Assembly (NCBI GenBank): GCA_023266675.1
Contig: JAHFPP010000004.1
Span: forward strand, 1 to 41,905
Source of the DNA: Candidatus Woesearchaeota archaeon
Lineage (GTDB): Archaea > Nanobdellota > Nanobdellia > Woesearchaeales > BM511
DNA length: 41,905 bases
Direction: 5' to 3'
Part shown: one piece after another, positions 25,006-40,327 of the stretch
How the letters are laid out: each line of letters begins with the position of its first letter
How positions within the stretch are numbered: position 1 is the stretch's first letter
Program-made: the position numbers and the translations under genes
Notes under the pieces: model-generated
Database searches by the model: none
What the model was told of the DNA's origin: nothing
What the model saw: the letters and a program-made list of their open reading frames with translations, nothing else

Positions 25006-25053
25006 TTAATAACTTTATGTTATTAATATAACAAATTACTCATAATTTGTTAT
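25006..25053. promoter_or_regulatory. Palindromic operator-like sites upstream of lysC
   Basis: TTAATAAC-TTTAT-GTTATTAA (25006-25026) and ATAACAAATTA-CTCA-TAATTTGTTAT (25028-25053). Confidence 0.55.
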
Positions 25054-25173
25054 TAATCCAATTATTAAGAATTTCAAATTAGTAATAATTTTATCAAAAG
25101 CCACACGACTTAATTTTAAAGACAAGAATATTGCTGTTACAATGATTAAATCTCTTGTTGAATCGTCAGTCAT
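25036..25173 (-). pseudogene. Truncated paralog (N-terminal 41 aa) of the membrane-anchored protein at 30365-31279
   Basis: MTDDSTRDLIIVTAIFLSLKLSRVAFDKIITNLKFLIIGLI aligns without gaps to MVDNSTRDLIIVITIALSLSINKAVFDEIREVLKFLVIGLI, then TNYE-stop. Confidence 0.85.
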
Positions 25174-25437
25174 TACTCATGCACCTTTAAATCCATAACA
25201 ATTACGAGCCTCACAAACAATAAAAGCCGAACTCGGAGATTGTATAGCAAATCGTAAACATAACTATCCTAAACGATTATGAAAACAATATAGAACTGAG
25301 CCTACAAAATTGCATAAATTTACACAAAAGTGTCAAAATTAGTGCAAAAATGTAACCCACAGAACAAAAAGTGTACCGAAGGTAAGGAATAGCAATGTTT
25401 TTTATCCTTTAACTTCCCTTTTGCCCAGATTCATTAT

Positions 25438-25734
25438 CTAAAAGAATAGGTGATACCTATAAATTAAAAATAAAGGGATATATATTATTACCAAACCAAT
25501 TCCAATTAGTTCCAATAATCTTTGTTTTGCATATTTTGGTCTTAATTCATTAGGAATTTCTGGAAGATTTGGATTAAAGTAATATCTAAACCAGAATGTG
25601 AATTTTCTTTTTCTGCCAAATTCAGGGCATACTTTTAAAGTATAATTAAATAAATGCAAACTTGAAAAACGAACATAAAAAACATACAACCCTAAACAGA
25701 TTTCATATATCATTAATAATTTATTCATATCCAT
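25438..25734 (-). CDS. Putative immunity protein (2 TM) for the orphan RHS tip
   Basis: 98 aa with two hydrophobic helices, directly downstream of the RHS C-terminal cassette. Confidence 0.6.
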   Translation of the reverse strand: MDMNKLLMIYEICLGLYVFYVRFSSLHLFNYTLKVCPEFGRKRKFTFWFRYYFNPNLPEIPNELRPKYAKQRLLELIGIGLVIIYIPLFLIYRYHLFF

Positions 25735-25774
25735 TTTAGTCTTAATACCTTTTCTATTTAAATATTTTTTTAAT

Positions 25775-26458
25775 CTAGCAAAAGCGTGCCGAATGAGTAG
25801 AGCAATAATCCTTATAATTTAAGGGAACATTATTCTGGTAATTATTGTTTGTATTCCCGTTTGAATTGCTTTGACCACTAGTACCACTGGTTGAACCTGA
25901 TTTGTCATTATTATTTACTTTAGAACTTTCATCTATTTGACTGATATAATTATGAAATACATTATATGTAAGTTCAGTTAAGATAGTATAAAAAATGGAT
26001 GGGTCAGGACGCATTGATTCAGTTAACAAACTCGTACTCATTGAATCTACTTGGTTAAGACTTTCCGTCCTTTTTGAATCTTTATTTCCAGCAATTGTAT
26101 TGAGAGTTGAAGAAACAGTACTTACCTTACCTAAGTCTTCATCAATTTTAGTATCTTGCGAACTTGTTGTAAAGGTCGAACTTATTAATTTGGTAAGACC
26201 ATAACCTGCTATAACAATACCACCAACTAATATTACTGCACCACCCACAGCAAGTACTGCACTTCCCCCAGCTGCAACCGCAATTCCGTAACCAAGATAA
26301 GCAGCATACCCGCCTTTTGCTAAATCTAACAAACCAAATAATGCACCCTTTAAAGCATGTCCACTCGGGTCAATGTATCTGTATGGATTCGACCTCTCAA
26401 AATTATAACGATTTAACATCTGCGGGTCATACACATTTTGAATCAAAGTATCAGGTTG
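25775..26458 (-). pseudogene. Orphan RHS core end plus C-terminal toxin-like cassette
   Basis: Begins QPDTLIQNVYDPQMLNRYNFERSNPYRYIDPSGH just after TAG TAA; followed by a Gly/Ala-rich hydrophobic domain. Confidence 0.82.
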
Positions 26459-27006: not shown

Positions 27007-27894
27007 TTAACATTGTAGCATTACTGCATTATCTGTTCTTGAGAATATTCCAGACATCACAAGTGAATTTAATTTTTCATTAAATTTTATGTCAGATATT
27101 TTGTTGAATAAGTTTTCATAAATTTTGTATAAATTATTAATATCTATAGAAACCCTATTTATCTTCATATTATCTGACAAATATAACATACAAGCAATTA
27201 TATCAACATAAGGTTTTAAGTGTCTTATCCCTAATTCATGGATTATATAATCATAGTTATTGCTTAAAACTTTAGATATTGCTTCTTCTACTGCTAAATT
27301 ATGTGCTTTTTTATTTTCTTCTAATAATTTTTTAAATTTGTTGGATGCTTTTAATTCTCCTTTACTATTAAACTCTGCCATATCTGAATCGACAAGCAAT
27401 TGAATATACTTTTCATATTTCTTATCTGATTCTATCATTCTTGTAAGTTTATCTTTTTTTATAACATCGTCATAAACTAATTCATTAAGAAGTACATAAA
27501 ATTTATTTAAAAATGCGGAAGTAGTGTGTATTGATTTTAATATTTGAATCATGATTTTTTTATTCGATATTACCTTGTTAAACAAATTATTTCTTAGTTC
27601 AATAAACTCATCATTAATCGCATTATTAATTTCTTGCAAAGGAAGTTTTAAATCTTCCCCTTCTCTTACATCTGCTCCATATATATTCTCGAAATAGATA
27701 TTTCTTATATATACCTTTTTTGAGTTTTCATCAATAACATTAAAAATTTTGTTGTAATTAAAATAAACTTTGTAGTTATTATTTCCTAACTCTTTTACAT
27801 CACTTACATTTAGACGTACACCATATTTTTTTAAGGTTTGAAAATTAAGTGATTGTTTAAAATTCTCTATCCTGTTATCAATTAATAAGCTCAT
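27007..27894 (-). CDS. Hypothetical protein (possible wHTH-like segments)
   Basis: 295 aa, very AT-rich; ATGA overlap with the upstream peptidase gene. Confidence 0.75.
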   Translation of the reverse strand: MSLLIDNRIENFKQSLNFQTLKKYGVRLNVSDVKELGNNNYKVYFNYNKIFNVIDENSKKVYIRNIYFENIYGADVREGEDLKLPLQEINNAINDEFIELRNNLFNKVISNKKIMIQILKSIHTTSAFLNKFYVLLNELVYDDVIKKDKLTRMIESDKKYEKYIQLLVDSDMAEFNSKGELKASNKFKKLLEENKKAHNLAVEEAISKVLSNNYDYIIHELGIRHLKPYVDIIACMLYLSDNMKINRVSIDINNLYKIYENLFNKISDIKFNEKLNSLVMSGIFSRTDNAVMLQC

Positions 27895-28550
27895 TTTAAT
27901 TTTTCCTGTTTTTCTTGTTCTTTTCGTTTATTGTTATATTTCTTGGCTTCTGTCTTTAAATATTTTACTTCTATAAAAGCCTTTATCTGTTTTATGCATT
28001 CATAAAAGTCTTTTTTATCAAGTTTAAAATAATGGTTTAATAAGTCTTTCTCATTTTTTGATATCCATGGCATCTGGTAACTCGGGTCAATAAAAAGTAT
28101 CTCGTCACCTTTTGATTTGTATCCAACAAAAAGCAATACATGTTTGACATCAGACCTATGTATGTCACCAAAGTCTAATTGATATTCATTTTTATAATGT
28201 TTTCTTGTAAAATCAAGCACTTTTAACCAAAAAAATACTGGTATTGGAATGTTATTGCTTAAGTTTTTATGGATGTCTTGAATACTCTCAAATTTCCTTA
28301 CAGAGAAGGAATAAGGCACTTCCTTTTGTTTCAGATAAGTATTGAATTTATTGAAAATGTATCTTTCATCTCTTATGCCTTCATGGTCGTAATCAAAAAT
28401 CACTTTTAGGTCATTAATATCTACTTTATTTATGTAACCAAGATGTTCAAGAATAGCTAGTATGGAGTTTAAACCACATGCCTGATATTCTTTGATATAG
28501 ATATCAGAATTTTTCAAATTTATTATAAATGAATCTTTTAAGGTTCCCAT
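27891..28550 (-). CDS. Papain-fold (C39-like) cysteine peptidase
   Basis: ACG...AIL helix, HVLLFVGY, FIDP: Cys-His-Asp triad pattern; no signal peptide. Confidence 0.75.
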   Translation of the reverse strand: MGTLKDSFIINLKNSDIYIKEYQACGLNSILAILEHLGYINKVDINDLKVIFDYDHEGIRDERYIFNKFNTYLKQKEVPYSFSVRKFESIQDIHKNLSNNIPIPVFFWLKVLDFTRKHYKNEYQLDFGDIHRSDVKHVLLFVGYKSKGDEILFIDPSYQMPWISKNEKDLLNHYFKLDKKDFYECIKQIKAFIEVKYLKTEAKKYNNKRKEQEKQEKLK

Positions 28551-28656
28551 ATCAAATACCTGTTAACACGCATATTTAAATGAAATCTGTAAAGAAACTT
28601 ATAAAGCTTGCTCTTTTTTAGAGAGTAATTGCTTTATCGTTAGGTTGATTCTTTAA

Positions 28657-29799
28657 TTAATTCACATGGCATTTCATCATGTCATAATAGCATTTTACAG
28701 CGTATTTTCTTGAAGTTGCTGTAACACATTGTTTTGGATGTTTTCCTTTCTCTTTTAGTCTGTTGAAAAACTTTGCTAAGTGTCCCTCTTTGTTATGACT
28801 TAGTTGCACGAGTGACAATAAATAAAAAGTGTGTCGCAATATCTTATCGCCTCTCTTTGTTATATAACAATTTTTGCTTAAGTTTTTACCTGATTGTTTC
28901 TCACTCACGTTTAATCCGCAGTAGCTTACAAATTTTTTATGATTTGGGAATCGCCTTATATCTCCAACCTCACCAATTATACAAGCCAAACTTACATCAT
29001 CATATCCAAACTCATTTAATAATCTGCTATAGGGACTTGACATGACGGCGACTTTGATTTTTGATTTGATATCCTCCATTGTCGCTTCATAGAAATTTAA
29101 TATCTTGATTGTTTGAACAAAGCAATCAGTAGGATATCCCTTGATACCTACACTTTTTTGTGCTAATTCCCTTATTTTAGGAATAAACTTTTTTTGAAGA
29201 AATGCCAGTTTTTTGTATTTAGAAGTTAAGGCTTCTTGCATTTCCTCATCTGTTAGTTTTGCTATTATCTCAGGGCTTGGATATCTTGTTAATAACCCTG
29301 TGATTGCTTTAGTTTTTGACAAGTGAAAATGTGTTTCAAGTTCAGGAAATATTATGTTTATCTGTCCTTTAAACATGTGCTTGTATTTACTAAGCTGAGA
29401 GCTCGTCTTATAATATAATCTTGCCAAATCCCTCATCTCATCTTCTTTAATAGGATTTATCTTTTTTAAACCAAACGATAAGTATTTTGAGATTAGCCTT
29501 GCATCTATCTTATCATTCTTCATATGGGTAAAATGCAGTTTAGCAAAAGTATGCATTTGGGCATTATCTACATAAATAACATTGTATTTCGTTTTGAAAT
29601 AATCATATATTGCTTTGCTGTAATTCCCTGTTGTCTCCATAGCAATAGTTGTGTCATAAGTTATGTTATGTTCTAATTCATCAAAACCCTCTTTTGTGTG
29701 AGCTATTTCAAATTCCTTGAAGATAGTCCTATCATCATTAAGTATACAAACCTGTGATTTATTTTTTGATACGTCTATTCCGCAAAACATTTTCTTCAA
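28657..29799 (-). mobile_element. IS110-family transposase/recombinase
   Basis: DEDD RuvC motifs (GIDVSK, METTG, KNDKIDA) and C-terminal GEVGDIRRF...YCGL...QSG; TTG start with a GGGAGG SD. Confidence 0.93.
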
Positions 29800-30364: not shown

Positions 30365-31279
30365 TTAAGAGCCTATTATGGTGGGGGGCTTTTTTGACTT
30401 AGAAAAAGCCCCCATTCGTCGATAAGAGTTATTTTGATTAGAACTTTTCTGGGGGCTAATTTGCCCCCATTTCAATATTTTTTCTAAGTAATTCAAAAGA
30501 TATCTTTTCTCAATCGTTTTTCCTAAACTTCTATATTTCTGAACTAATTTTTTATCGCTTACAACAAAAAACCATTCATCATACTCTTTTTTCAAAAGAT
30601 TAACTTTCTTTATCAGTTCAGGTCTTTTCTTCTTGATAACTTTTCCAGTTTCAACTTCAACTGCAAATTTTCTTGAATTCAATTCAAAAACCAAATCAGG
30701 TTTCTTTGTAACAAACAAAGAAACCTGGACACCTTTACTTTCAAGAAAATTTGCTATATCAAAAACCACAAAACAGTGGTTTAGACTTTCATTAAATCTA
30801 GTTTTCAAAAGATATTTTTCTTTTTTGTTTGAGCTTAAGCTTTTATGTTCACTAATCCTGTAGCCTTTGGCTAACAGGTAATTCACTTCCTCAAGCTTAA
30901 GCTCTCTAAACCTGAAAAATCGTTTATCGGCATCCAAAGTGATTGTGATGTCTTTTCGTTTAGGAATAGCCGCAATTTGAGGCGTTTTCTCCGTTTTGCG
31001 GCTATCTTCAATTAGAGGTAATCTCTTTTCCGTTAAGGTATGTTCTTCAATTTGAGATAATACAATCGGTTTTGTAGCTTCTAAACTCTCAGATTTTCTT
31101 TTCGTTAAGGATTTTTTAACAAAATAGACAACTCCTAAAACGAGTAACCCCAAGATAATTAACCCAATGACTAAGAATTTTAGAACTTCACGGATTTCAT
31201 CAAAAACCGCTTTGTTTATACTTAAGGACAAAGCTATTGTAATTACAATGATGAGGTCTCTTGTGGAATTGTCAACCAT
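30365..31279 (-). CDS. Membrane-anchored protein with a PD-(D/E)xK-like nuclease domain
   Basis: N-terminal TM segments; KPDLVFELNSRKFAVEVETG motif. The ATG 31279 start is supported by the paralog at 25173. Confidence 0.72.
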   Translation of the reverse strand: MVDNSTRDLIIVITIALSLSINKAVFDEIREVLKFLVIGLIILGLLVLGVVYFVKKSLTKRKSESLEATKPIVLSQIEEHTLTEKRLPLIEDSRKTEKTPQIAAIPKRKDITITLDADKRFFRFRELKLEEVNYLLAKGYRISEHKSLSSNKKEKYLLKTRFNESLNHCFVVFDIANFLESKGVQVSLFVTKKPDLVFELNSRKFAVEVETGKVIKKKRPELIKKVNLLKKEYDEWFFVVSDKKLVQKYRSLGKTIEKRYLLNYLEKILKWGQISPQKSSNQNNSYRRMGAFSKSKKPPTIIGS

Positions 31280-31450
31280 TTTAGCCCGTAAACATAGACA
31301 TCCTCCATTCATAAACGAAACTCGGAGAATGTATATCAGAACGAATACGGGTTTAGGGCTAGTTTAAAAAGAAGGTATTAATTTCGTAATGACGTTAGAA
31401 TTTGTCAATATCTCGACTAACTTATTCTTTTATCTCTTTTTTTAAAAAAT

Positions 31451-31738
31451 TCAAGGAATTCGTGCGTTAGTCAATAAATCCCTTAATTTATCTAACCCTT
31501 TTTTGATTTTTTGTGCTATTTTTGAATTTGGAAAATACTCTTCCAAATAATATGAAGTAATAACTAACAACATAAAAATCACGAAGAGTAGAGTTATTGG
31601 AACTATAAAATTTCCCCAAGTATCCCATTCTCTATAAATTATTTTATGTAAACTGAAAATAATCCCAGATAGAACTAACAAACAAAAAGGGATGATTATT
31701 GCCCGTTCTATTAGTGTTGGTAATAGGTCTTTTCTCAT
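31451..31738 (-). CDS. Putative immunity protein (2 TM)
   Basis: 95 aa with two TM helices, immediately downstream of the RHS core/toxin gene. Confidence 0.6.
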   Translation of the reverse strand: MRKDLLPTLIERAIIIPFCLLVLSGIIFSLHKIIYREWDTWGNFIVPITLLFVIFMLLVITSYYLEEYFPNSKIAQKIKKGLDKLRDLLTNARIP

Positions 31739-31790
31739 TATGCTCTAATTGTATAAGTTATTAATAAATCTATTTGAGTTTTTTCCTCGT

Positions 31791-33017
31791 CTATTTTCTT
31801 GAATCAGTAACTTTGCCTGTTTTTGTGTCCCTAGTATATCTGCCTGTTTCGCTTGATACAAAGCTTCCACCTGAATAATATCCTCTTTCTGAACCAGATG
31901 GGGTTGCATATGTAATACCATAACTATTTCTTTGTCTATTAGACGATGTTGATTGTGTAACCAACGAAGGATTGCTCTCTGTCACCTTATTTGAATTGTC
32001 CGATTGAGTTGGTGCATAACACATGTTAGGAGTTGGATTTTTTAAATTTACCACTACACTTGATTGTTCTTTATCTTTTAGAAATTTTGCTATCTCCTTT
32101 TGTTTTTCTATTGTGTCAACGAAAGTTTCTTTTAGTTGTTTTACTTCATCTTTTATATCATTAACTTTGCTATCCATAAAATTACTAACATCATTGCCAT
32201 ATAAAGAAACTGCTCGGGGTATTGCAGGTATGGTATAATCTGCTAATATTATCGACCCGTATATAAGTGCCATAAAAATGAAATAAGGAACAATGTGTCC
32301 AGTCGGGTCAGTATTTTTCACAGGATTATTATTTTCGAAGGCATAGCGGTTCAAATCCTGAGGATTGTAAACATTGGGAATCAATGTATCTGGTTGTTGG
32401 AATGGCGGTGTGCCAGCGATTCCTTGTTGTCTAAAATGATAATCTGTGCTTTTGATTAATGGGTCATACTCTTTAGCTTCATAATTATATCTTGATAAGT
32501 TACCGCCTGATTGTATGTCTCCAAACGGAGCATAAGCCGTGTTTTCAACTATTCCACCAGTTGAATTCGTGACGACAGTAGCTGACCCTTGATGGTCGGA
32601 CATTATGAAATATTTAGTGCTACCAGCAGAGCTATCTTCTTGTTGAGCAACTAATTGTCCATTGTGATAAACAAGAGTATAGTTATATTCTCCTGAATCA
32701 TTAATGAGTTTTACAAAATTCTGACTGCTGTAAATCAGCATCTGTTTTACAGAGCCGTTAGGATAGTATGTTTTCTTTACATGAACTCTCTCCTCTATAG
32801 GATGATAAAAATATTCAACAAGTAAAGTGCCTGACGAGTTACTGCCATTATACACTTTCCATAACTGATTATAAGAGTTGTATTCATGATAAAATCCGTC
32901 GCCACTTTCAAGATTTCCGTTAGGGTCCCATGTTAAATCATACTCAACAGAAAAGCAGATTGGCAGAGTTATGATTAGCAAAATCATGAAAATGCTAATT
33001 AGTTTGAGATTTTTCAT
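31791..33017 (-). CDS. Secreted RHS repeat-associated core protein with variable C-terminal (toxin-like) domain
   Basis: Signal peptide MKNLKLISIFMILLIITLPICFS; WDPNGNL, DHQGS, YAPFG, LNRYAFENNNPVKNTDPTGH. Confidence 0.9.
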   Translation of the reverse strand: MKNLKLISIFMILLIITLPICFSVEYDLTWDPNGNLESGDGFYHEYNSYNQLWKVYNGSNSSGTLLVEYFYHPIEERVHVKKTYYPNGSVKQMLIYSSQNFVKLINDSGEYNYTLVYHNGQLVAQQEDSSAGSTKYFIMSDHQGSATVVTNSTGGIVENTAYAPFGDIQSGGNLSRYNYEAKEYDPLIKSTDYHFRQQGIAGTPPFQQPDTLIPNVYNPQDLNRYAFENNNPVKNTDPTGHIVPYFIFMALIYGSIILADYTIPAIPRAVSLYGNDVSNFMDSKVNDIKDEVKQLKETFVDTIEKQKEIAKFLKDKEQSSVVVNLKNPTPNMCYAPTQSDNSNKVTESNPSLVTQSTSSNRQRNSYGITYATPSGSERGYYSGGSFVSSETGRYTRDTKTGKVTDSRK

Positions 33018-36000
33018 GATATCACCAATTCATTTTCTGTATCTGCATACTGGCTTGAATTGATTCTTGCTGTCGAGACATAAATACCACTTGAAGTATT
33101 CTGTTCTACAATAATGAAAGCATCATCAGAAGTGATGTTTATTGAATTAGTCGAGTTAATGCTATCCAACTGCCAATTAAAGACTTGAGATGAATTCAAA
33201 TGATTCCTTGCAACTATCTCAAAAACATTGCCAGTCAAAGCTTCAAATGAGCTTATCTGCAATGGCAAGACTGTAAAAAAGTCTGTCATAGTATCGACAT
33301 AAGATGATGCTTTTGCTCTGATTTCTGCTTTATTATTTCCTGAAACATTATATGAATTTTCAATGATTACAGCAACAGAATCACCATTGTTTACATCAAT
33401 TGTAACATTCACATCTGGATTAGTAAGATTCCAGCTTATGTTACCAGATTTCCAATTATTTTTAACATCAAACATAAGAACTTGGCTTGTATAATTATTC
33501 TCTAATCTAACATAATTCTCGATTGAAATTCCAGCTATCAAGAATCTCTCAATGTGTGATGAGCTTGTATCATTTGAGGTGAAATCAATTTCATAATCTT
33601 TTTGACCGTCAGAGGAATAATTTATTTCAGTTATTACTATTATATCTTCATTTGAACTTATGTTAAAGGAATTATTAAAAGTCTCATTATTTGTCGAGAT
33701 TTTAATATTCGTTGAAAGATTATTGTAGTAATTCTTAGCTGTAAATGCCATGACATATCGGCTTATATTTGAGTAAAGCACATCATAATCTTCAACTTCC
33801 AAGCCTCTAATCGTTAAGTCTTTGCTTATACTATCATTTCCATCTAAAGAAGTAACATTGCATTGGAAAGTCTTTTTACCTGGCGAGGAATAATAGTAAT
33901 CAATTAAATCTGATGAAGAACTATTACCCGATAAATTCATTGTCATGAAACTATAAATATTTTCGCTACAGTTCCAGTTAATGTTATTCGCCTGTTCTTT
34001 AACATCATTTCCAATAATCAGTTCAAACATTCTTCTTGTAATGTCTGAATAGAGAATGTCAAGTGCCTCTGCATTTGTCCCGAATTTAATATCCTTAGTC
34101 TCATAATCTGACAATCCATTTGCACTTGCTGTAAAGTTAACTGAATAATCTCCGCCGTGACTATAATTCTGCTCTACAAGAACAATAACACTATCTGTAA
34201 TATTCATATTATTAGATGTGAATGTCGGACTGCCATCACCAAAGTTAGTGCTAAAATTAGCGGTAATAGTGCTATTTTTTTCATTTATCAAATAGAACTC
34301 AAATACTCTATCTTTTGAGTTAGTGCTTAATTCATGAGGATTTTGTAAATCAACACTTGCACCACCTTCAATGATTTTACTTGGAGCGTGTGCAAGACCT
34401 GAATAAACAAGTTTCTTCGACTCATTATTTTTGAGAATCTTTTGCATATTTCCAATTGAATTATAGGAATAAGTGTAGGTATCGGTGCCAATTGTTGCAT
34501 TAACCAGTCTGTCTAATGAGTCGTAGCTCATCCTGTAAAGTTTCGGGGTTAGGCTATCATTAATTTGCACAATATTCCCAATAGAATCATATTGATAACC
34601 GAAATTCATCACACTCGGCACAGATATTGTTGTAAGCCTATTATTTTGCGGATTATAAGCAAAATTCATCGTCAAGCCATTTGAATACCCTCTGCTTGAA
34701 ATACTGCCAAATGCGTTAAAAGACGTATCTGTAATGTAATTTGGTATCTTCCTAACAAACTCTTGTTTATTGAAGATGTAATCCAGCTTGGAATAACCCT
34801 TATTTGTTACTAACTTATCTTGAGAATCATATTCAAAATTCTGCACAATAGGATAACCAAAAGTATTCTCAGTAATCTTAGAAATTCTTAATCTATCATC
34901 ATAAGTATAAGCAAAAGTTCTGTTGCCGATAGTAACATTTGAAAGAGTGCCATAAAACTGTTGGTCATAATCAAAAGAAGTATTGACTTTTGAACTAAGC
35001 TTTGACTTAATCCTATTCAAAGAATCATAGCTTTCAGTAATTGTACTATTTTTATTGTCAGTTTGAGAAATCAAGTTATTATTTGCATCGTATTGGTATG
35101 TCCATGTTCCCATGTCTGGGTCTATCATCTTTATCTTACGACCTAATGCATCATAAAAGAATTGGAAAACGTTGTTTTCATTGTCAGTGATTTTGATTAG
35201 ATTGTCGTTACTATCATACTGGTAAGAAGTCGTGTATGTTTCGTCTATTTGCGTGTATGGGTCTTTGTTGTATTCGTAAACCCTTGTTATCCTTCCATAC
35301 GCATCAATAGAATAAATATGTCTATGCCCATTTTCATCGTAATCTGTTATGTTATATTGATTAAAAGAGACGGTCTTATTACTTCCGTCTGTATTTTTTA
35401 CTAAAACAACTCTTGACAATGAGTCATAATTGTAAATTGTGATATTGTCTGTTGATGACTTGCTTGTCAATCCCGAATTATAATTTGCGAAGTAAGGGTT
35501 TTGTTCTGAACCAACTCTAAATTTAGAATCATAGAAAATGTTTTTGACAACTTCTTGACCGTTTTCTATTTCTTGTTTAATTTGAACGATGTTGCCAAAA
35601 CCATCATAAAAGAAGTTGGTGTTGTCTGTGTCGTTGGCTGTCGTTTTTTGTTTGACTGTGATTTTCTCAGGAGCAACGCCGTCAAATGAGTAAACATAAG
35701 TTTTTGTTGGCAAGAATGTTGAGTCGTATGGTTTGATTTCTTTCAAAATTCTGCCGAATGTGTCGTATGTGTAATAGGTTGTTATTCCGTTTGAAGTTGA
35801 TGATAAAAGATTTCCAGTGCCAGCGTCATAACTAAATGTTGATACATGCCCAAGTGGGTCAACAGTTGACTCGACAAAGATATTCAATTTATCATATTTG
35901 TATTTGTAAATGTTTCCAAGTGAATCTGTTTTTGAGATTAAATTCCCAAATGAATCATAATTGAAATAATTGTAAGTATCATTTCCAGATTCTAACCATT

Positions 36001-38551
36001 GCTCTGTTTTGGTCAATTCACCTTTTGAGCCGACGCCATTCAACCCTAAATTATCATAATAATATTTTGTCTCCTTGACTTTATTAAAGTTTGAATCATA
36101 CGCAGTCACTCTTGAAACTTTGTTAATAATCCAAGCATCAAAATTAAAACCATATGAATAATTATAATATTTCTCATCACCAACAACATCAGCATCACCA
36201 AAATCCATCACAAATTGAGGATTACCAAATAAATTGTAAGAGTAGGATATATTATGTATTTTTGGAATTAAATTTCCATCATAAACGTAATCTGTTGATG
36301 ATTTCAAAGACAGATTATAAATTCCGTTAGAGTAAGTGTAATTATAATCTTTAGTATTTTTGAAAAACAAATTATTATTAAAATTGTAAATTTCTGTCTG
36401 ATACTCTTTTCCTCGCCTTGCATCATCCTGCATGAAGTAATGTTTTGTAACAGAATCATTGTCAATTTCTGTTGATATTCCAAATCCTCTAAACTCAGAT
36501 TTGTCATAATTGTATTTGCCTAAAGAATAATTATAATTAGTAAAAGCGACTATGTTGAAATCAGATGTCAGAGAATTATTCTTTAGAACATTATTGACAA
36601 CAAAAATGTTAAAACCTAAATTAATATTTGAATACTGCGTTGACTTCGTATAATTGATAAAAGTAACTCCGCCATATTCATTAGTTATAGATTTAAGCAT
36701 GTAAGGCAAAGTAGAATTCTTCGTCCAAGTATAATTTGAAACATTATAGGAAATCATGATATCAACAAAACCATCCCCATCAACATCAGCTAATCGTCTA
36801 CCAATATTTTTACCGCCAACAATGAAATCCTCAGGCGACTTCCAGGAGTTATTCAAACTCCAACCAAAACCAGTATTCAAGTAAGCCGCGTTTGACTGAT
36901 TCAAAATATCAACCAAACCATCACCATTGACATCAACAAAACGAACACCTAAGTCTCCGCCAGAAGAATTCACAAAACTTATTGGCGGAGCCCAAGTTGA
37001 ATCATAATTAACAAAACCAGAGCCGTTATTTAGCCAAGCCTTTAAAGATGAATTTCCTTTCAGTAAATCAGGCAATCCATCGCCATTGATGTCAACCAGC
37101 CTTAAACCTGTATCAATGGTTGTTACAAAATCATCAGGAACACTCCACACGCTTAAACTCCAACCACTGCCAGTATTCAAATAAACGCTTCTGTTGCCTG
37201 ACTTCGCCTGAATCAAATCAATTCTTCCATCACCATTAACATCACTTAATTGCACGCCTTGATCAAAGCCAGATGAATTAACAAAATCAAGAGGTATACT
37301 CCATGAGCTTAAACTCCAACCGCTACCAGTGTTCAAATAGACAATTCTGCTGCTTGAATTGGATTTCAACAAATCAGTATAGCCATCTCTATTTACATCT
37401 GCAAACCTAACACCTAAATCAATATTTGAAGAAATAATCGCAACGGGAAGATTCCAAGAAGAATCCAAACTCCAGCCGTTTGATTTATTGTTTATCCAAG
37501 AATTGTTATTAGAAGCGTTGTTTTGAACAACATCAATGAATCCGTCATTGTTTAAATCTAGAAGCTGAAACCCGTAATCATTAGTTGCGTCACTAAAGAC
37601 GCCAACAGGCGTCCATGAAGTTGAATTCGAATAACCTTCAGATGAAACATAGTAATCGAAGTTTATGCTGAAAAGCGAGGAAACATTATCATTTCCATAA
37701 AGAGTTATCTTTGAAAGTGAAGATAATGAAGGAGTTAATGAAGTATATGTAAAATGATTTCTTCTAACAAGCGCAGAATCAACAGTTATGGTGATATCTG
37801 TCAATCTTCTTGACTCCTCAAACAAGTTTCCTTGGTCATAAACTCGTCGCCTGTCAGGTCGGACAGAGCTTTCATAAACAAAACTTACCACTCTTTTCTG
37901 GTCGCTGTTGTATTTTATGTTATCAAGATAAACAGCTGACGAATCTTCAGCGTAAGGATTAAGTAAATAAGTATAGTTTATAGAATTCGAATTAGTATCT
38001 TCAACTAGTGATAATAACCATTTAGAGGTATAACCTCGCGAAGAGTCCAATACATACGCGAAAGTGTATTTTTTGCCGTCCTGTTTTGTAACAGTCCAGT
38101 TAGCAGAGTTTTTTATAATCTTAAACCAGTAATCAACTTCTGTATGATAAGCACCATTGAAATATATCAATTCATACTGGTTGCCGTCAAGAATCATTAA
38201 ATATTTGTCATCACTTACATCATCAGGTGTTCCATTGGCATCACGATAAATCAAGTCCTGGTTTAAACTCCAACCAGAACCTAAAATTCCTGGTCTTCCT
38301 TTAGCGCCTTGTGAATTATAAGAAACAAAAACTGAAGGCGATAAACCATTGACACCTTTAGGAACATCAATTGGATAATTGTAAGTTGCGCTTCCAGGAA
38401 ATAAGTTAGTATTGTACTGCCCAAACATTCTCACCTTAGGCGTTTCAGGAACCTTAGCGCTGTGCAGATAAGGTTTGTAATTATCTGCAAATCCCACGCC
38501 AACTAGTAATAAGAAAACAAATAAACTTAAAACTATTTTGTTGGAAGACAT
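33014..38551 (-). CDS. Secreted SpvB/TcB-like + FG-GAP + RHS/YD shell protein with Ig-like (PKD/CARDB-like) tail; lacks an RHS core
   Basis: Signal peptide; GSATYNYPIDVPKGVNGLSP...YNS...GSGWSL; six D-x-[ND]-x-D-G-x-x-D repeats; EFRGFG; many YD repeats; no PxxxxDPxG motif. Confidence 0.9.
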   Translation of the reverse strand: MSSNKIVLSLFVFLLLVGVGFADNYKPYLHSAKVPETPKVRMFGQYNTNLFPGSATYNYPIDVPKGVNGLSPSVFVSYNSQGAKGRPGILGSGWSLNQDLIYRDANGTPDDVSDDKYLMILDGNQYELIYFNGAYHTEVDYWFKIIKNSANWTVTKQDGKKYTFAYVLDSSRGYTSKWLLSLVEDTNSNSINYTYLLNPYAEDSSAVYLDNIKYNSDQKRVVSFVYESSVRPDRRRVYDQGNLFEESRRLTDITITVDSALVRRNHFTYTSLTPSLSSLSKITLYGNDNVSSLFSINFDYYVSSEGYSNSTSWTPVGVFSDATNDYGFQLLDLNNDGFIDVVQNNASNNNSWINNKSNGWSLDSSWNLPVAIISSNIDLGVRFADVNRDGYTDLLKSNSSSRIVYLNTGSGWSLSSWSIPLDFVNSSGFDQGVQLSDVNGDGRIDLIQAKSGNRSVYLNTGSGWSLSVWSVPDDFVTTIDTGLRLVDINGDGLPDLLKGNSSLKAWLNNGSGFVNYDSTWAPPISFVNSSGGDLGVRFVDVNGDGLVDILNQSNAAYLNTGFGWSLNNSWKSPEDFIVGGKNIGRRLADVDGDGFVDIMISYNVSNYTWTKNSTLPYMLKSITNEYGGVTFINYTKSTQYSNINLGFNIFVVNNVLKNNSLTSDFNIVAFTNYNYSLGKYNYDKSEFRGFGISTEIDNDSVTKHYFMQDDARRGKEYQTEIYNFNNNLFFKNTKDYNYTYSNGIYNLSLKSSTDYVYDGNLIPKIHNISYSYNLFGNPQFVMDFGDADVVGDEKYYNYSYGFNFDAWIINKVSRVTAYDSNFNKVKETKYYYDNLGLNGVGSKGELTKTEQWLESGNDTYNYFNYDSFGNLISKTDSLGNIYKYKYDKLNIFVESTVDPLGHVSTFSYDAGTGNLLSSTSNGITTYYTYDTFGRILKEIKPYDSTFLPTKTYVYSFDGVAPEKITVKQKTTANDTDNTNFFYDGFGNIVQIKQEIENGQEVVKNIFYDSKFRVGSEQNPYFANYNSGLTSKSSTDNITIYNYDSLSRVVLVKNTDGSNKTVSFNQYNITDYDENGHRHIYSIDAYGRITRVYEYNKDPYTQIDETYTTSYQYDSNDNLIKITDNENNVFQFFYDALGRKIKMIDPDMGTWTYQYDANNNLISQTDNKNSTITESYDSLNRIKSKLSSKVNTSFDYDQQFYGTLSNVTIGNRTFAYTYDDRLRISKITENTFGYPIVQNFEYDSQDKLVTNKGYSKLDYIFNKQEFVRKIPNYITDTSFNAFGSISSRGYSNGLTMNFAYNPQNNRLTTISVPSVMNFGYQYDSIGNIVQINDSLTPKLYRMSYDSLDRLVNATIGTDTYTYSYNSIGNMQKILKNNESKKLVYSGLAHAPSKIIEGGASVDLQNPHELSTNSKDRVFEFYLINEKNSTITANFSTNFGDGSPTFTSNNMNITDSVIVLVEQNYSHGGDYSVNFTASANGLSDYETKDIKFGTNAEALDILYSDITRRMFELIIGNDVKEQANNINWNCSENIYSFMTMNLSGNSSSSDLIDYYYSSPGKKTFQCNVTSLDGNDSISKDLTIRGLEVEDYDVLYSNISRYVMAFTAKNYYNNLSTNIKISTNNETFNNSFNISSNEDIIVITEINYSSDGQKDYEIDFTSNDTSSSHIERFLIAGISIENYVRLENNYTSQVLMFDVKNNWKSGNISWNLTNPDVNVTIDVNNGDSVAVIIENSYNVSGNNKAEIRAKASSYVDTMTDFFTVLPLQISSFEALTGNVFEIVARNHLNSSQVFNWQLDSINSTNSINITSDDAFIIVEQNTSSGIYVSTARINSSQYADTENELVIS

Positions 38552-38575: not shown

Positions 38576-40327
38576 CTAATTAGTGCTGTCAATCAAGCTT
38601 TGAACGCTGTTCTTTATTGCTAGAGATGACATGTTAAAGTTTTGCCAAACATAAAACACCGGCGTGATATTATACATTGTCGGAAAGCTTATGCTGCTAT
38701 TCTGATTATAATTAAAAGCGTACCTTTTATTACCAGAAGTTATAAACACGTCAAATGCTCCCAACGCCTGCGTCGTGTTTGCCAGCCTTATATAAACATT
38801 TTTATCATTATAAGAATTATAAGCTGTCCCAAGTTCAGACGCGATTACTCCCTGAATTATCGCATCCCTCCCTTGCGTTTCATTGGAAAAACAATTTGTA
38901 AAAGTATAGTTTATTATTTTTGAATAACCATCTGAACTGTTGTAAAAACCGAAAATGCTCCAGTTCAAACTGGTTTTTCCAGCTATCAGATTATAACACT
39001 GACCTGATAATAAGTTATTTCCTAGTGCCGTGTCATTTAATTGTGTTACAACATTATTATTGTAGGATATAACAACACCTGTCCCGCTTGAGCTTATTGA
39101 TAAATTGTCAGATGATTGTAATGAGTTAATAGGAAAATTTCCATTCATACTTGTAGCTTCCATAAGTAAAGCAGATGTGTATGAATTGCTTTGTGGTGTT
39201 GGTGAATTATCTGACCAATCATCATCTTCTAACTGCCCGCTTGCATAAGGATAACGAATAAAACATCCAACAAACCCGCCGGTTGAAGTATTCGCTGATA
39301 ACTGTTGTTGACTTCCATCGTTAGGATGATAAGTTATAGAATAACTTTTTCCTGAAGTTATGTTATAACTCATCACATCACTATAAACTACACCGTTTGC
39401 AGCTAAATTAAAAGTATTACTGCCATTAAAAGTAAGATTTCTTTTTGTACCGCTCATAACCTTTCCAACATCTAATCCGTTTACTTCTGCGATATAAGCA
39501 TAATTACTTGTGTTCAGACCGACCGTATTTCCGGCTTGAAACTTAATTCTGATAGAGGTTGCAGAACCATTAATAGCACCGCTCCAAATAAGTCCTCTAA
39601 TAGCTCCGCCAGTACTACCTACAGACAATGCGCCTTGTTTTGAAGCATCCCAAATAGTCTGATTTGGAGTAAAATATGAAGACAAATTTATGTAATAATT
39701 ATTTGAATCTAAGAAAGGATCAAGAGTAGTCTCCTTATTATCATCATCAGTTGCTTTGATATCATACTTTGTTTTTTGACCAAGAGGCTGATAAACAGTT
39801 GTCTTAAACTTCTGCTCAGAATTTTGAGAAAGCGTAACCAAATCATTATTATTTATCTCGTTTGAAGCCTTATCTGAAGACATTTCAGAAAAGCCTTGAT
39901 AAGTGTAATCATAAGATGTAACATTGTCACACATCATAACAGGCTTGACTATAACTGAACCATTTTCATTTAACTGAACCGAATTAACATCTGAAACTGA
40001 ATCATTTAAAACATCAGTTTGAACATCGCAAGGATAAGGATTATTCACACTTCTCGTCTCAGTTATCTGACCGTATTTTTCAAACTTCTGTGGGGAAACT
40101 TTATCAGAATGAAAAACATTGGAAACAACCACGTTCTTATCAACGCTGCCAAGATTCATAATCGAATACTCAATCGTACAAACTGTACCATGACAATAAA
40201 CAGTCTCAGGCGAAGAAATATTAACGCCATTACCCTCAATACTGACAAAATTACTGTCAGCAAAAACTGAAGAGATACTTATTGCTAAGACTAGAATAAA
40301 TAAAATATTTGTTTTCATGAAAATCAA
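38576..40327 (-). CDS. Secreted Asn/Ser-rich protein, first gene of the RHS operon
   Basis: Signal peptide, many N-x-S/T sequons, 24 nt from the RHS shell gene. Confidence 0.8.
   Translation of the reverse strand: MIFMKTNILFILVLAISISSVFADSNFVSIEGNGVNISSPETVYCHGTVCTIEYSIMNLGSVDKNVVVSNVFHSDKVSPQKFEKYGQITETRSVNNPYPCDVQTDVLNDSVSDVNSVQLNENGSVIVKPVMMCDNVTSYDYTYQGFSEMSSDKASNEINNNDLVTLSQNSEQKFKTTVYQPLGQKTKYDIKATDDDNKETTLDPFLDSNNYYINLSSYFTPNQTIWDASKQGALSVGSTGGAIRGLIWSGAINGSATSIRIKFQAGNTVGLNTSNYAYIAEVNGLDVGKVMSGTKRNLTFNGSNTFNLAANGVVYSDVMSYNITSGKSYSITYHPNDGSQQQLSANTSTGGFVGCFIRYPYASGQLEDDDWSDNSPTPQSNSYTSALLMEATSMNGNFPINSLQSSDNLSISSSGTGVVISYNNNVVTQLNDTALGNNLLSGQCYNLIAGKTSLNWSIFGFYNSSDGYSKIINYTFTNCFSNETQGRDAIIQGVIASELGTAYNSYNDKNVYIRLANTTQALGAFDVFITSGNKRYAFNYNQNSSISFPTMYNITPVFYVWQNFNMSSLAIKNSVQSLIDSTN

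Follow-up and report, generated by a model that had tools for sequence, protein, structure and literature searches.

In the RHS and Tc toxin cocoons known so far, the toxic tip is enclosed while the chain or chains fold in the cytoplasm. All Rhs structures covered by Günther et al. (2022, PMC8765631) share a conserved C-terminal Rhs-repeat region that spirals into the cocoon and seals it, and in Tc toxins and RhsA this sealing region is described there as an aspartyl autoprotease. The autoprotease motif is given as DPXGX18-19DPXG, with two catalytic Asp residues, in a report (PMC10684867) that also describes how the Rhs shell shields the hydrophobic, pore-forming tip of Tse5. In the two-polypeptide cocoons of Tc toxins, 97.2% of the TcC proteins are 851-1050 amino acids (aa) long; one TcB serves several TcC, some of them encoded far away, and orphan TcC are still thought to use TcB (PMC7861908). 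The 'TcdB/TcaC-type' toxins of Zhang et al. 2012 (PMC3482391) combine a signal peptide, SpvB, an integrin-like propeller, RHS and a toxin, and are listed for Euryarchaeota too. Here we analyse a locus of this kind on contig JAHFPP010000004.1 of a Candidatus Woesearchaeota archaeon (assembly GCA_023266675.1), of which positions 1 to 41,905 of the forward strand, 41,905 nucleotides (nt) in all, are called the window. Its reverse strand encodes an 1845 aa RHS shell protein and, in the next gene, a 408 aa protein with terminal RHS repeats, the RHS-associated core and a variable C-terminal tip (Table 1); an original prediction from the sequence had read the two as parts of one split RHS system. We consider it fairly probable that DPANN archaea have here a polymorphic-toxin module of the RHS kind, exported by Sec, whose BC-type cocoon is made as two polypeptides cut at the boundary between wall and plug.

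SpvB/TcB-like, FG-GAP and YD-repeat regions had been ascribed to the 1845 aa protein, and Pfam matches bear this out. The SpvB family scored E 3.9e-5 and 23.4 bits (cut-off 22), FG-GAP_3 (PF13517) 1.2e-19, FG-GAP 1.5e-8 and TcdB_toxin_midN 2.9e-16, while the RHS repeats were matched by RHS_repeat (PF05593, E 8.2e-27) and TIGR01643 (3.3e-17). The last RHS homology in the shell is ...LAHAPSKII, residues 1388-1396, at about nt 34366; Rhs_assc_core gave zero matches on this protein at E<=1. The claim that the repeats stop at ~34370 and are followed by an Ig-like tail of ~450 aa without a core is thereby confirmed. An AF2 model of residues 700-1845, built with 26 aligned relatives, reached a mean predicted local distance difference test (pLDDT) of 78 and a predicted template modelling score (pTM) of 0.34. 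The modelled wall matches solved Rhs cores of type VI secretion systems (T6SS), TcdB2-TccC3 and teneurins, with Foldseek E values of 5e-26 and weaker, and the tail is modelled as all-beta, with tandem sandwich domains and block pLDDT values mostly of 70-90. This tail, which has a weak PKD_4 match under the cut-off (E 0.0017), is kept in 25 relatives at 34-60% identity. The HAPS motif ends the wall in all 27 aligned shells, whatever their type, with H1388 and P1390 invariant; past HAPS, the tails differ according to the layout types described below. By hydropathy, the sole transmembrane (TM)-like segment of the shell protein is residues 1-25, and the presequence pattern was found again in related shells (both signal peptides of the locus were called from hydropathy and alignment). 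A C-terminal membrane anchor was found in 0 of the 28 shell proteins examined.

The shell open reading frame (ORF) ends ...ELVIS-TGA and the ATG of the small gene overlaps it as ATGA, just as first read, with GGTGA lying 7-11 nt upstream. The small protein begins with a hydrophobic N-terminus, residues 1-29, next VEYDLTWDPNGNL..., and its core was matched by TIGR03696 (Rhs_assc_core) at residues 162-241 with 31.3 bits. As a single sequence it resembles the terminal part of the YD shell of teneurins (E 9e-7); the 16-member profile of its family found teneurins at 2e-12, plus YenC2 597-764 and RHS2 583-694. These matches uphold its description as RHS-type repeats, core and C-terminal domain, with ~217 aa comprising the terminal repeats and the core. 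In the family alignment A1 (16 members), identity is 36-48% overall and the presequence and ~220 residues are kept. D210, D237 and G240 are invariant in 16/16, and similarity drops sharply after ...NPxKNTDPTGH.

A search of 5.8 billion proteins with the small protein returned 82 proteins of 224-714 aa, including 41 besides that of the window at E<=3e-52. Named matches were Woesearchaeota and other archaeal metagenome-assembled genomes (MAGs), and just 2 longer fused relatives were present in this set at E<=1e-10. Furthermore, a scan with one genome per species gave 466 confirmed stretches, the best 80 of which led to 63 loci for analysis (numbered with L below); BLAST searches with both window proteins covered every ORF of 120 aa or more in them. 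According to their record titles, 61 loci are archaeal and 2 bacterial (L005, L044), the archaeal ones being Woesearchaeota, Nanoarchaeota/Nanoarchaeia, Pacearchaeota, Aenigmatarchaeota and 'uncultured Methanosarcinales' MAGs, mostly Woesearchaeota/Nanoarchaeota. The original prediction had proposed a survey of archaeal genomes for the same split point, and the split did recur: a shell with the same tail is directly followed by the small gene in 22 of the 63 loci (14 shells complete, 8 cut by a contig end), and a tail-bearing fragment ORF alone precedes it in 4. In 2 loci a shell with an unrelated tail comes before the small gene, and in 12 the small gene lies upstream of a 1900-2250 aa shell with homology to ~1390 and another, often Cys-rich tail. 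A single fused ORF occurs in 5 loci, and 18 have no shell within the available flank. Three loci were corrected by hand (L035 and L026 with ORF overlaps >10 nt, L067 with a gap of 1.5 kb).

An overlap of 4 nt between the small ORF and the ORF with the tail, as seen in the window, occurs in 22 loci. The second signal peptide, too, recurs: a presequence of 15-80 aa (median 25 aa) with a strongly hydrophobic window is present in 56 of the 63 small ORFs having a complete N-terminal match. Additional small-type ORFs are either 5'-truncated (22) or cut by contig ends (7). Moreover, assembly of run X1 with another program gave a contig that covers 31777-34452 and shows 0 differences; as X1 is probably the source sample, this bridging contig excludes an assembly artefact and does not count as independent biology. 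In the one metatranscriptome from that sample the genes had no coverage, a result that weighs neither way. With the layout found in 22 of 63 loci, the 4-nt overlap kept, the tail conserved and the junction bridged, the earlier argument against a simple frameshift holds. On the sequence evidence, the split is a conserved gene architecture.

Where the two halves would meet is indicated by the fused protein of L061 (1943 aa), which aligns to residues 5-1450 of the shell and 23-250 of the small protein. Its junction reads ...TYDSGPVHAPS, a low-complexity loop of ~70 residues, and then SYDLTYDKNGNL..., and its position is that of the split point in the window; the presequence of the small protein has no counterpart there. 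The window's ...LAHAPS and VEYDLTWDPNGNL... are therefore adjacent in one natural chain, in agreement with the proposal that the mature small protein starts where the wall ends. Judging by the loop, the wall/plug site tolerates insertion in the fused form too.

Co-occurrence of the two proteins was assessed in 401 genomes sampled from the same order, with a search not seeded on adjacency. The small protein (conserved 250 residues, E<=1e-10) was found in 60 genomes and the shell wall (residues 700-1395, E<=1e-20) in 44, with 42 having both; the shell-only genomes G005 and G116 show weak partial matches (~1e-22). In 38 of the 42, a hand tally of coordinates placed both on the same contig within ~7 kb. 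One genome, G183, is unpublished, and without it these counts are 41 and 37. Because of the kinship among the census genomes, no statistic is attached.

Some variants of both genes were also observed. Shells encoded downstream of the small gene (L029, L043, L045, L057 and others) have a tail that opens Cys-rich (..CCRDNDCW..) and is not Ig/PKD-like. Small subunits of 600-676 aa (P0013, P0015, P0040, P0043) contain a LamG domain (Laminin_G_3) inside the core, between ..YGYEGKE.. and ..TDFNxR... In L014 (7896..11239), L019 (7794..11290) and L066 (11619..13619), an ORF of ~700 aa that corresponds to the tail together with the final third of the wall stands behind a fused full-length RHS gene, and in L014 and L019 it is followed by the small gene. 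This suggests that wall end, tail and small gene move as a replaceable cassette.

The complex was modelled with residues 650-1400 of the shell (27-row alignment) and residues 24-250 of the small protein (16-row alignment). The interface score ipSAE was 0.87 in 3/3 runs and 0.00 in the best control, and the mark applied to it was reached by 116 of 157 solved complexes versus 2 of 215 mismatched pairs; since what is split here is a fold having many solved examples, passing the mark indicates likeness and is no proof of binding. Across the runs, the contacts agreed to at least 98%, and the partners had pLDDT values of 84 or more. Predicted contacts join shell residues 1388-1396 with residues 24-28 of the small protein, set its residues 93-165 against shell residues 1230-1293, and set core residues 200-234 against shell residues 1080-1124. 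Such contacts are compatible with a spiral that runs on and finishes as a plug, and the predicted complex agrees with the expectation that the 408 aa protein continues the spiral and plugs the shell. Since the small protein corresponds to the sealing region of known cocoons, the cut would lie at the wall/plug boundary. Altogether, architecture, contiguity in L061 and the model speak for that part of the original prediction in which the cocoon is completed in trans; only the two signal peptides point to its further claim, that this would happen outside the cell.

The C-terminal tips were compared as the sequences after the core motif with a length of at least 80 aa (n=81, including three from this genome). 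Their lengths, 149-260 aa with a median of 193, form a narrow range that fits a cavity limit. The boundary between the conserved part and the hypervariable C-terminus is sharp and lies at DPTGH. A same-strand ORF of at least 45 aa starts between -20 and +200 nt behind 70 of the 81 tips, and downstream ORFs were similar in 17 of 34 tip-similar pairs versus 11 of 2381 other pairs. Co-variation of tip and downstream gene, together with the 5'-truncated orphans, is in terms of sequence the signature of a polymorphic toxin-immunity cassette. In 39 of the 81 tips, the mean hydropathy over 19 residues is at least 1.6 within 15 residues of the core (at least 2.0 in 22); the tip of the window belongs to these (IVPYFIFMALIYGSIILA, residues 241-258, TM-like segment ~240-266). 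A membrane-type ORF follows 34 of the 36 hydrophobic-start tips having a downstream ORF.

Pfam searches of 46 small proteins gave weak YD-shell/RHS matches in the conserved part and DUF6765 on one tip, and no other tip family. In the search for a function of the window's tip and the 95 aa ORF, Atlas neighbours with Ntox families reached 0.77-0.84, below the bar of 0.9. Some tips share a recurring 'LDIxFIxxDI...' start, which may resemble pre-toxin domains. Further copies of the small gene exist in the same genome: the orphan tip of the window, the 98 aa ORF and the 45 aa relic make up a displaced copy of the tip block (25036..26446), and contig C11 bears a second small gene, which is complete, stands alone and encodes both its own signal peptide and a differing tip. 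Complete small genes also stand in tandem in L005, L007, L020, L038 and L062. Extra small genes with their own signal peptides beside one shell gene fit the idea of exchangeable small subunits put forward originally.

In the module proposed here, the 1845 aa protein would supply the SpvB-like part, the propeller gate and the wall; its Ig/PKD-like tail would point outward from the cut point and probably mediate adhesion. The 408 aa protein, made by coupled translation, would be exported by means of a separate signal peptide, and the ~217 aa of terminal repeats that it carries would continue the beta-spiral and plug the shell in trans. As the two proteins appear to be exported separately, the capsule would probably be assembled only after export. 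The small protein would bring in a hypervariable C-terminal tip of 149-260 aa (the range of the family), which would be encapsulated and possibly cut off at DPTG. Tip and co-varying downstream gene, here that of the 95 aa membrane protein, would act as toxin and immunity. Further small genes with signal peptides and the 5'-truncated orphans would supply alternative tips for one shell, which may then be re-used and may be displayed at the surface.

Several observations weigh against this scheme. The core of the small protein, at 31.3 bits, stays slightly below the NCBIfam cut-off of 32.5. In its protease motif the first DPxG is replaced by ..QPD210TL.., in which D210 is invariant and P-x-G is missing; the second motif, D237PTG, is present, the spacing between D210 and D237 is 26 residues, and the residue after DPxG is H, not L, in 61 of the 81 tips. 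Autocleavage at DPTG is therefore uncertain. A hydrophobic helix is expected to stop Sec transfer and to stay in the membrane of the producer, and such a helix right after the core, as in 39 of 81 tips including that of the window, sits badly with encapsulation outside the cell. Moreover, a tip of ~170 aa would have to enter a pre-folded shell. The tip of the window and the 95 aa ORF downstream of it match no toxin or immunity family in Pfam. The passing complex model may reflect memory of solved single-chain and BC cocoons. Finally, 18 of the 60 census genomes with the small protein, many of them fragmented, gave no shell match, and a nearby shell gene is missing in 18 of 63 loci and at the second copy on contig C11.

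The hydrophobic helix could also be read as an anchor. The small protein would then be a type I membrane protein, held by the helix behind DPTGH and with its tail in the cytoplasm, that tethers the anchorless shell in a teneurin-like surface complex for adhesion to, or recognition of, hosts or kin. Several observations suit this view: 39 of 81 tips have a TM-like helix no more than 15 residues from the core (22 at hydropathy of at least 2.0), 0/28 shells have a membrane anchor of their own, and the shell bears an Ig/PKD-like tail. So do the best PDB sequence matches of the small protein, which are teneurin plugs and described as uncleaved (PMC8765631). However, a positive-inside signal is lacking: the 15 residues behind the helix average 1.36 K+R versus 2.0 D+E, and are net positive in 9 of 39 tips and net negative in 17. 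At least 2 hydrophobic segments are found in 23 of the 39, and the other 42 tips do not have the early helix at all. Furthermore, tips that co-vary with the next gene and stacks of 5'-truncated orphans bear a toxin-immunity signature. There is no linker between DPTG and the helix, and in known cocoons the plug ends in the lumen, so a docked plug would presumably not be anchored in a membrane. We regard an anchoring role as unlikely. A separate role of the two proteins appears quite improbable to us: the small ones would be secreted mini-RHS toxins of ~400 aa, with the plug as carrier or protease, the large one an independent surface protein, and their adjacency the result of co-regulation or shared recombination history. 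This would explain solitary small genes, such as the C11 copy, the 18 loci (of 63) whose available flank shows no shell, of which L006, L012, L017, L040 and L055 have ~10 kb of flank, and the 18 genomes with the small protein only. Nevertheless, of the 44 genomes with a shell, 42 also encode the small protein, mostly next to it, and the 4-nt overlap is kept in 22 loci. The shell lacks a closing core and the small protein is exactly the piece missing in comparison with fused relatives; an open beta-spiral fragment of ~217 aa would hardly be stable alone, and the complex model is confident. Solitary genes also have a precedent, as orphan TcC far from TcB are still thought to use TcB (PMC7861908).

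We give almost no credence to an artefact (frameshift or misassembly) or to decay of an RHS gene that an insertion has disrupted. Truncated and fragmentary copies do surround such loci and an IS110 transposase lies 2 kb off, but both ORFs are intact, and the layout and the intact signal peptide of the small protein are found at 36-61% identity in dozens of independent MAGs. The second assembler's contig bridges the junction with 0 differences, and the inserted tail is itself conserved. Frameshift and misassembly as such were ruled out by the conservation across loci and the bridging contig.

Directly upstream of the shell gene lies that of a 583 aa secreted protein. Its C-terminal domain of ~100 aa is encoded immediately before shell genes in 18 loci; in L050 it follows the shell, and in L046 it is found ahead of a small gene. 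The N-terminal parts of proteins with this domain vary, and 5 of 20 have a LamG lectin domain. The domain was found in 47 of the 401 genomes of the order but only in 17 of the 44 shell-bearing ones, 30 genomes having no shell match. It is therefore a wider secreted-protein module that often stands beside shells of the same-tail type, and may serve for docking or surface anchoring. The AF2 model of the 583 aa protein is poor overall (pLDDT 53) and confident only for residues 481-583, which are alpha/beta; its best fold match, with a Z of 6.6, is within the noise range. No TcA, VgrG or PAAR gene had been noticed in the window. PAAR (PF05488) and Phage_GPD/VgrG (PF05954) were not found in the whole genome, which is 95.9% complete, in searches whose controls gave matches, and to this extent the observation stands; for TcA (PF18276, PF03538) the genome gave no match in a search whose controls were silent everywhere too, which makes it uninformative.

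Two other regions of the window were recorded. A 315 aa protein (30365..31312, reverse strand) has an N-terminal membrane segment and no Pfam family, and its C-terminal part recurs near RHS modules in L057, L050, L031 and L011. Between the main RHS block and the orphan block, at 27891..29799 on the reverse strand, a Peptidase_C39_2-like protein (219 aa, E 5e-6) and an IS110-family transposase (380 aa) are encoded.

Table 1. Features of the split RHS locus and its surroundings; nt positions refer to the window, residues to the encoded protein
Feature	Position (nt)	Strand	Basis or remarks
Shell gene, 1845 aa	33014..38551	-	Signal peptide-like start, SpvB-like, FG-GAP propeller, TcdB midN, RHS wall, beta-sandwich tail; no RHS core
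Shell signal-peptide-like presequence, ~residues 1-22 (...GVGFA, then DNYKPYLH)	38486..38551	-	Hydropathy and pattern of relatives; heuristic
SpvB-like segment, residues 53-118	38198..38395	-	PF03534
FG-GAP / integrin-like beta-propeller region, ~residues 320-580	36812..37594	-	Pfam profiles
TcdB_toxin_midN region, residues 584-717	36401..36802	-	PF12256
RHS/YD-repeat shell wall, ~residues 720-1395, terminal motif ...AHAPS	34367..36394	-	RHS_repeat, AF2 model
450 aa tail of tandem beta-sandwich (Ig/PKD-like) domains, residues 1396-1845, starting at the split point	33017..34366	-	AF2 model
Small plug-plus-tip gene, 408 aa, ATGA overlap with shell gene	31791..33017	-	
Small-protein signal-peptide-like presequence, residues 1-23 (...LPICFS, then VEYDL)	32949..33017	-	Hydropathy and relatives
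Terminal RHS repeats and RHS-associated core / plug, residues 24-240	32298..32948	-	TIGR03696, PDB profile matches, invariant columns
Variable C-terminal tip, 168 aa, residues 241-408: hydrophobic helix 241-266, then charged helical, low-complexity region	31794..32297	-	
95 aa membrane protein, candidate immunity or partner	31451..31738	-	Directly downstream of small gene; co-variation across loci
583 aa secreted protein upstream of shell	38576..40327	-	C-terminal ~100 aa domain recurs upstream of shell genes
Orphan tip, 223 aa, starts inside core (..IQNVYDPQMLNRY..IDPSGH), no signal peptide, Gly-rich hydrophobic C-terminus	25775..26446	-	
98 aa membrane ORF behind orphan tip, candidate orphan immunity gene	25438..25734	-	
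45 aa relic of N-terminus of 315 aa gene (30365..31312, follows main block)	25036..25173	-	

To our knowledge, very few conflict or host-interaction factors of DPANN archaea have been identified, and a module that is common in one DPANN order (shell in 44 and small protein in 60 of 401 genomes) would therefore widen the known archaeal armoury. If the two-part cocoon is confirmed, a shell exported beforehand would be able to capture the unfolded tip after translocation and seal it in, and the capsule would be naturally modular. A bolder idea, which we put forward as speculation with doubtful prospects, is that DPANN cocoons are built outside the cell, that a single shell can take up any one of several plug-plus-tip subunits in trans, and that the hydrophobic or Gly-rich tips are membrane-inserting agents at the contact with a host or rival, for instance opening the membrane of a partner. 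If true, this would amount to a new assembly route for RHS capsules and would offer a first molecular entry point to the means by which these episymbionts attack other cells or tap them.

In the literature searched, no description of a split RHS module in DPANN archaea or Woesearchaeota was found; Makarova et al. 2019 (mBio), which was outside this coverage, may bear on it. With the RHS cocoon proteins in general the locus shares the repeat wall, the difference being that the core is on the next protein here and not on the repeat-bearing chain. The N-terminal export and propeller module and the RHS stalk are the same as in the 'TcdB/TcaC-type' toxins, and the fused proteins of L014, L060, L061 and L066 fit that type. 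The toxins are, however, described as single proteins of ~2200 aa, and a separate core-plus-toxin protein with a signal peptide is not mentioned in that description (PMC3482391).

T6SS Rhs effectors (RhsA, Rhs1, Tse5, Tse15) are the top Foldseek matches of the modelled wall. Their cocoon is sealed by a C-terminal plug with an aspartyl autoprotease, and the cleaved tip is kept inside (PMC10684867, PMC8765631). In contrast to the archaeal system, they are single chains mounted through PAAR/VgrG and do not have a signal peptide; Tse5, whose hydrophobic tip invites comparison, is not Sec-exported, and the protease motif deviates on the archaeal side. Teneurin YD shells give the best sequence matches to the plug of the small protein and are likewise extracellular shells with appended adhesion domains, but they belong to eukaryotes and are type II membrane proteins of one chain, in which the plug stays uncleaved and the shell is empty (PMC8765631). 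Orphan rhs-CT/immunity arrays are resembled by the 5'-truncated core-plus-tip genes, each with a downstream partner, that lie behind the main gene (22 ORFs among the loci; 25775..26446 in the window). Many extra archaeal copies differ from these in being complete, with their own start codon and signal peptide, and would therefore need no recombination for expression.

The likeness to TcB-TcC (TcdB2-TccC3, YenB-YenC2) goes furthest. Both have an SpvB-like part, an FG-GAP propeller and TcdB midN followed by the RHS wall, the fold of the modelled wall matches 6sup, 6h6g and 4o9x, and in both the cocoon consists of two polypeptides, the second with the core and a hypervariable tip, an assembly that for the archaeal pair is suggested by the model and by L061. 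Several C-type genes, some of them distant, serve one B in Tc toxins (PMC7861908), as may be the case here. The archaeal cut lies much nearer to the end: the C subunit of Tc toxins has ~850-1050 aa and makes up roughly half of the shell (PMC7861908), a share not reached by the C-like subunit of 408 aa with its ~217 aa of repeats and core. The archaeal system further stands apart by the signal peptides on both halves, the 450 aa Ig-like tail at the cut and its DPANN host.

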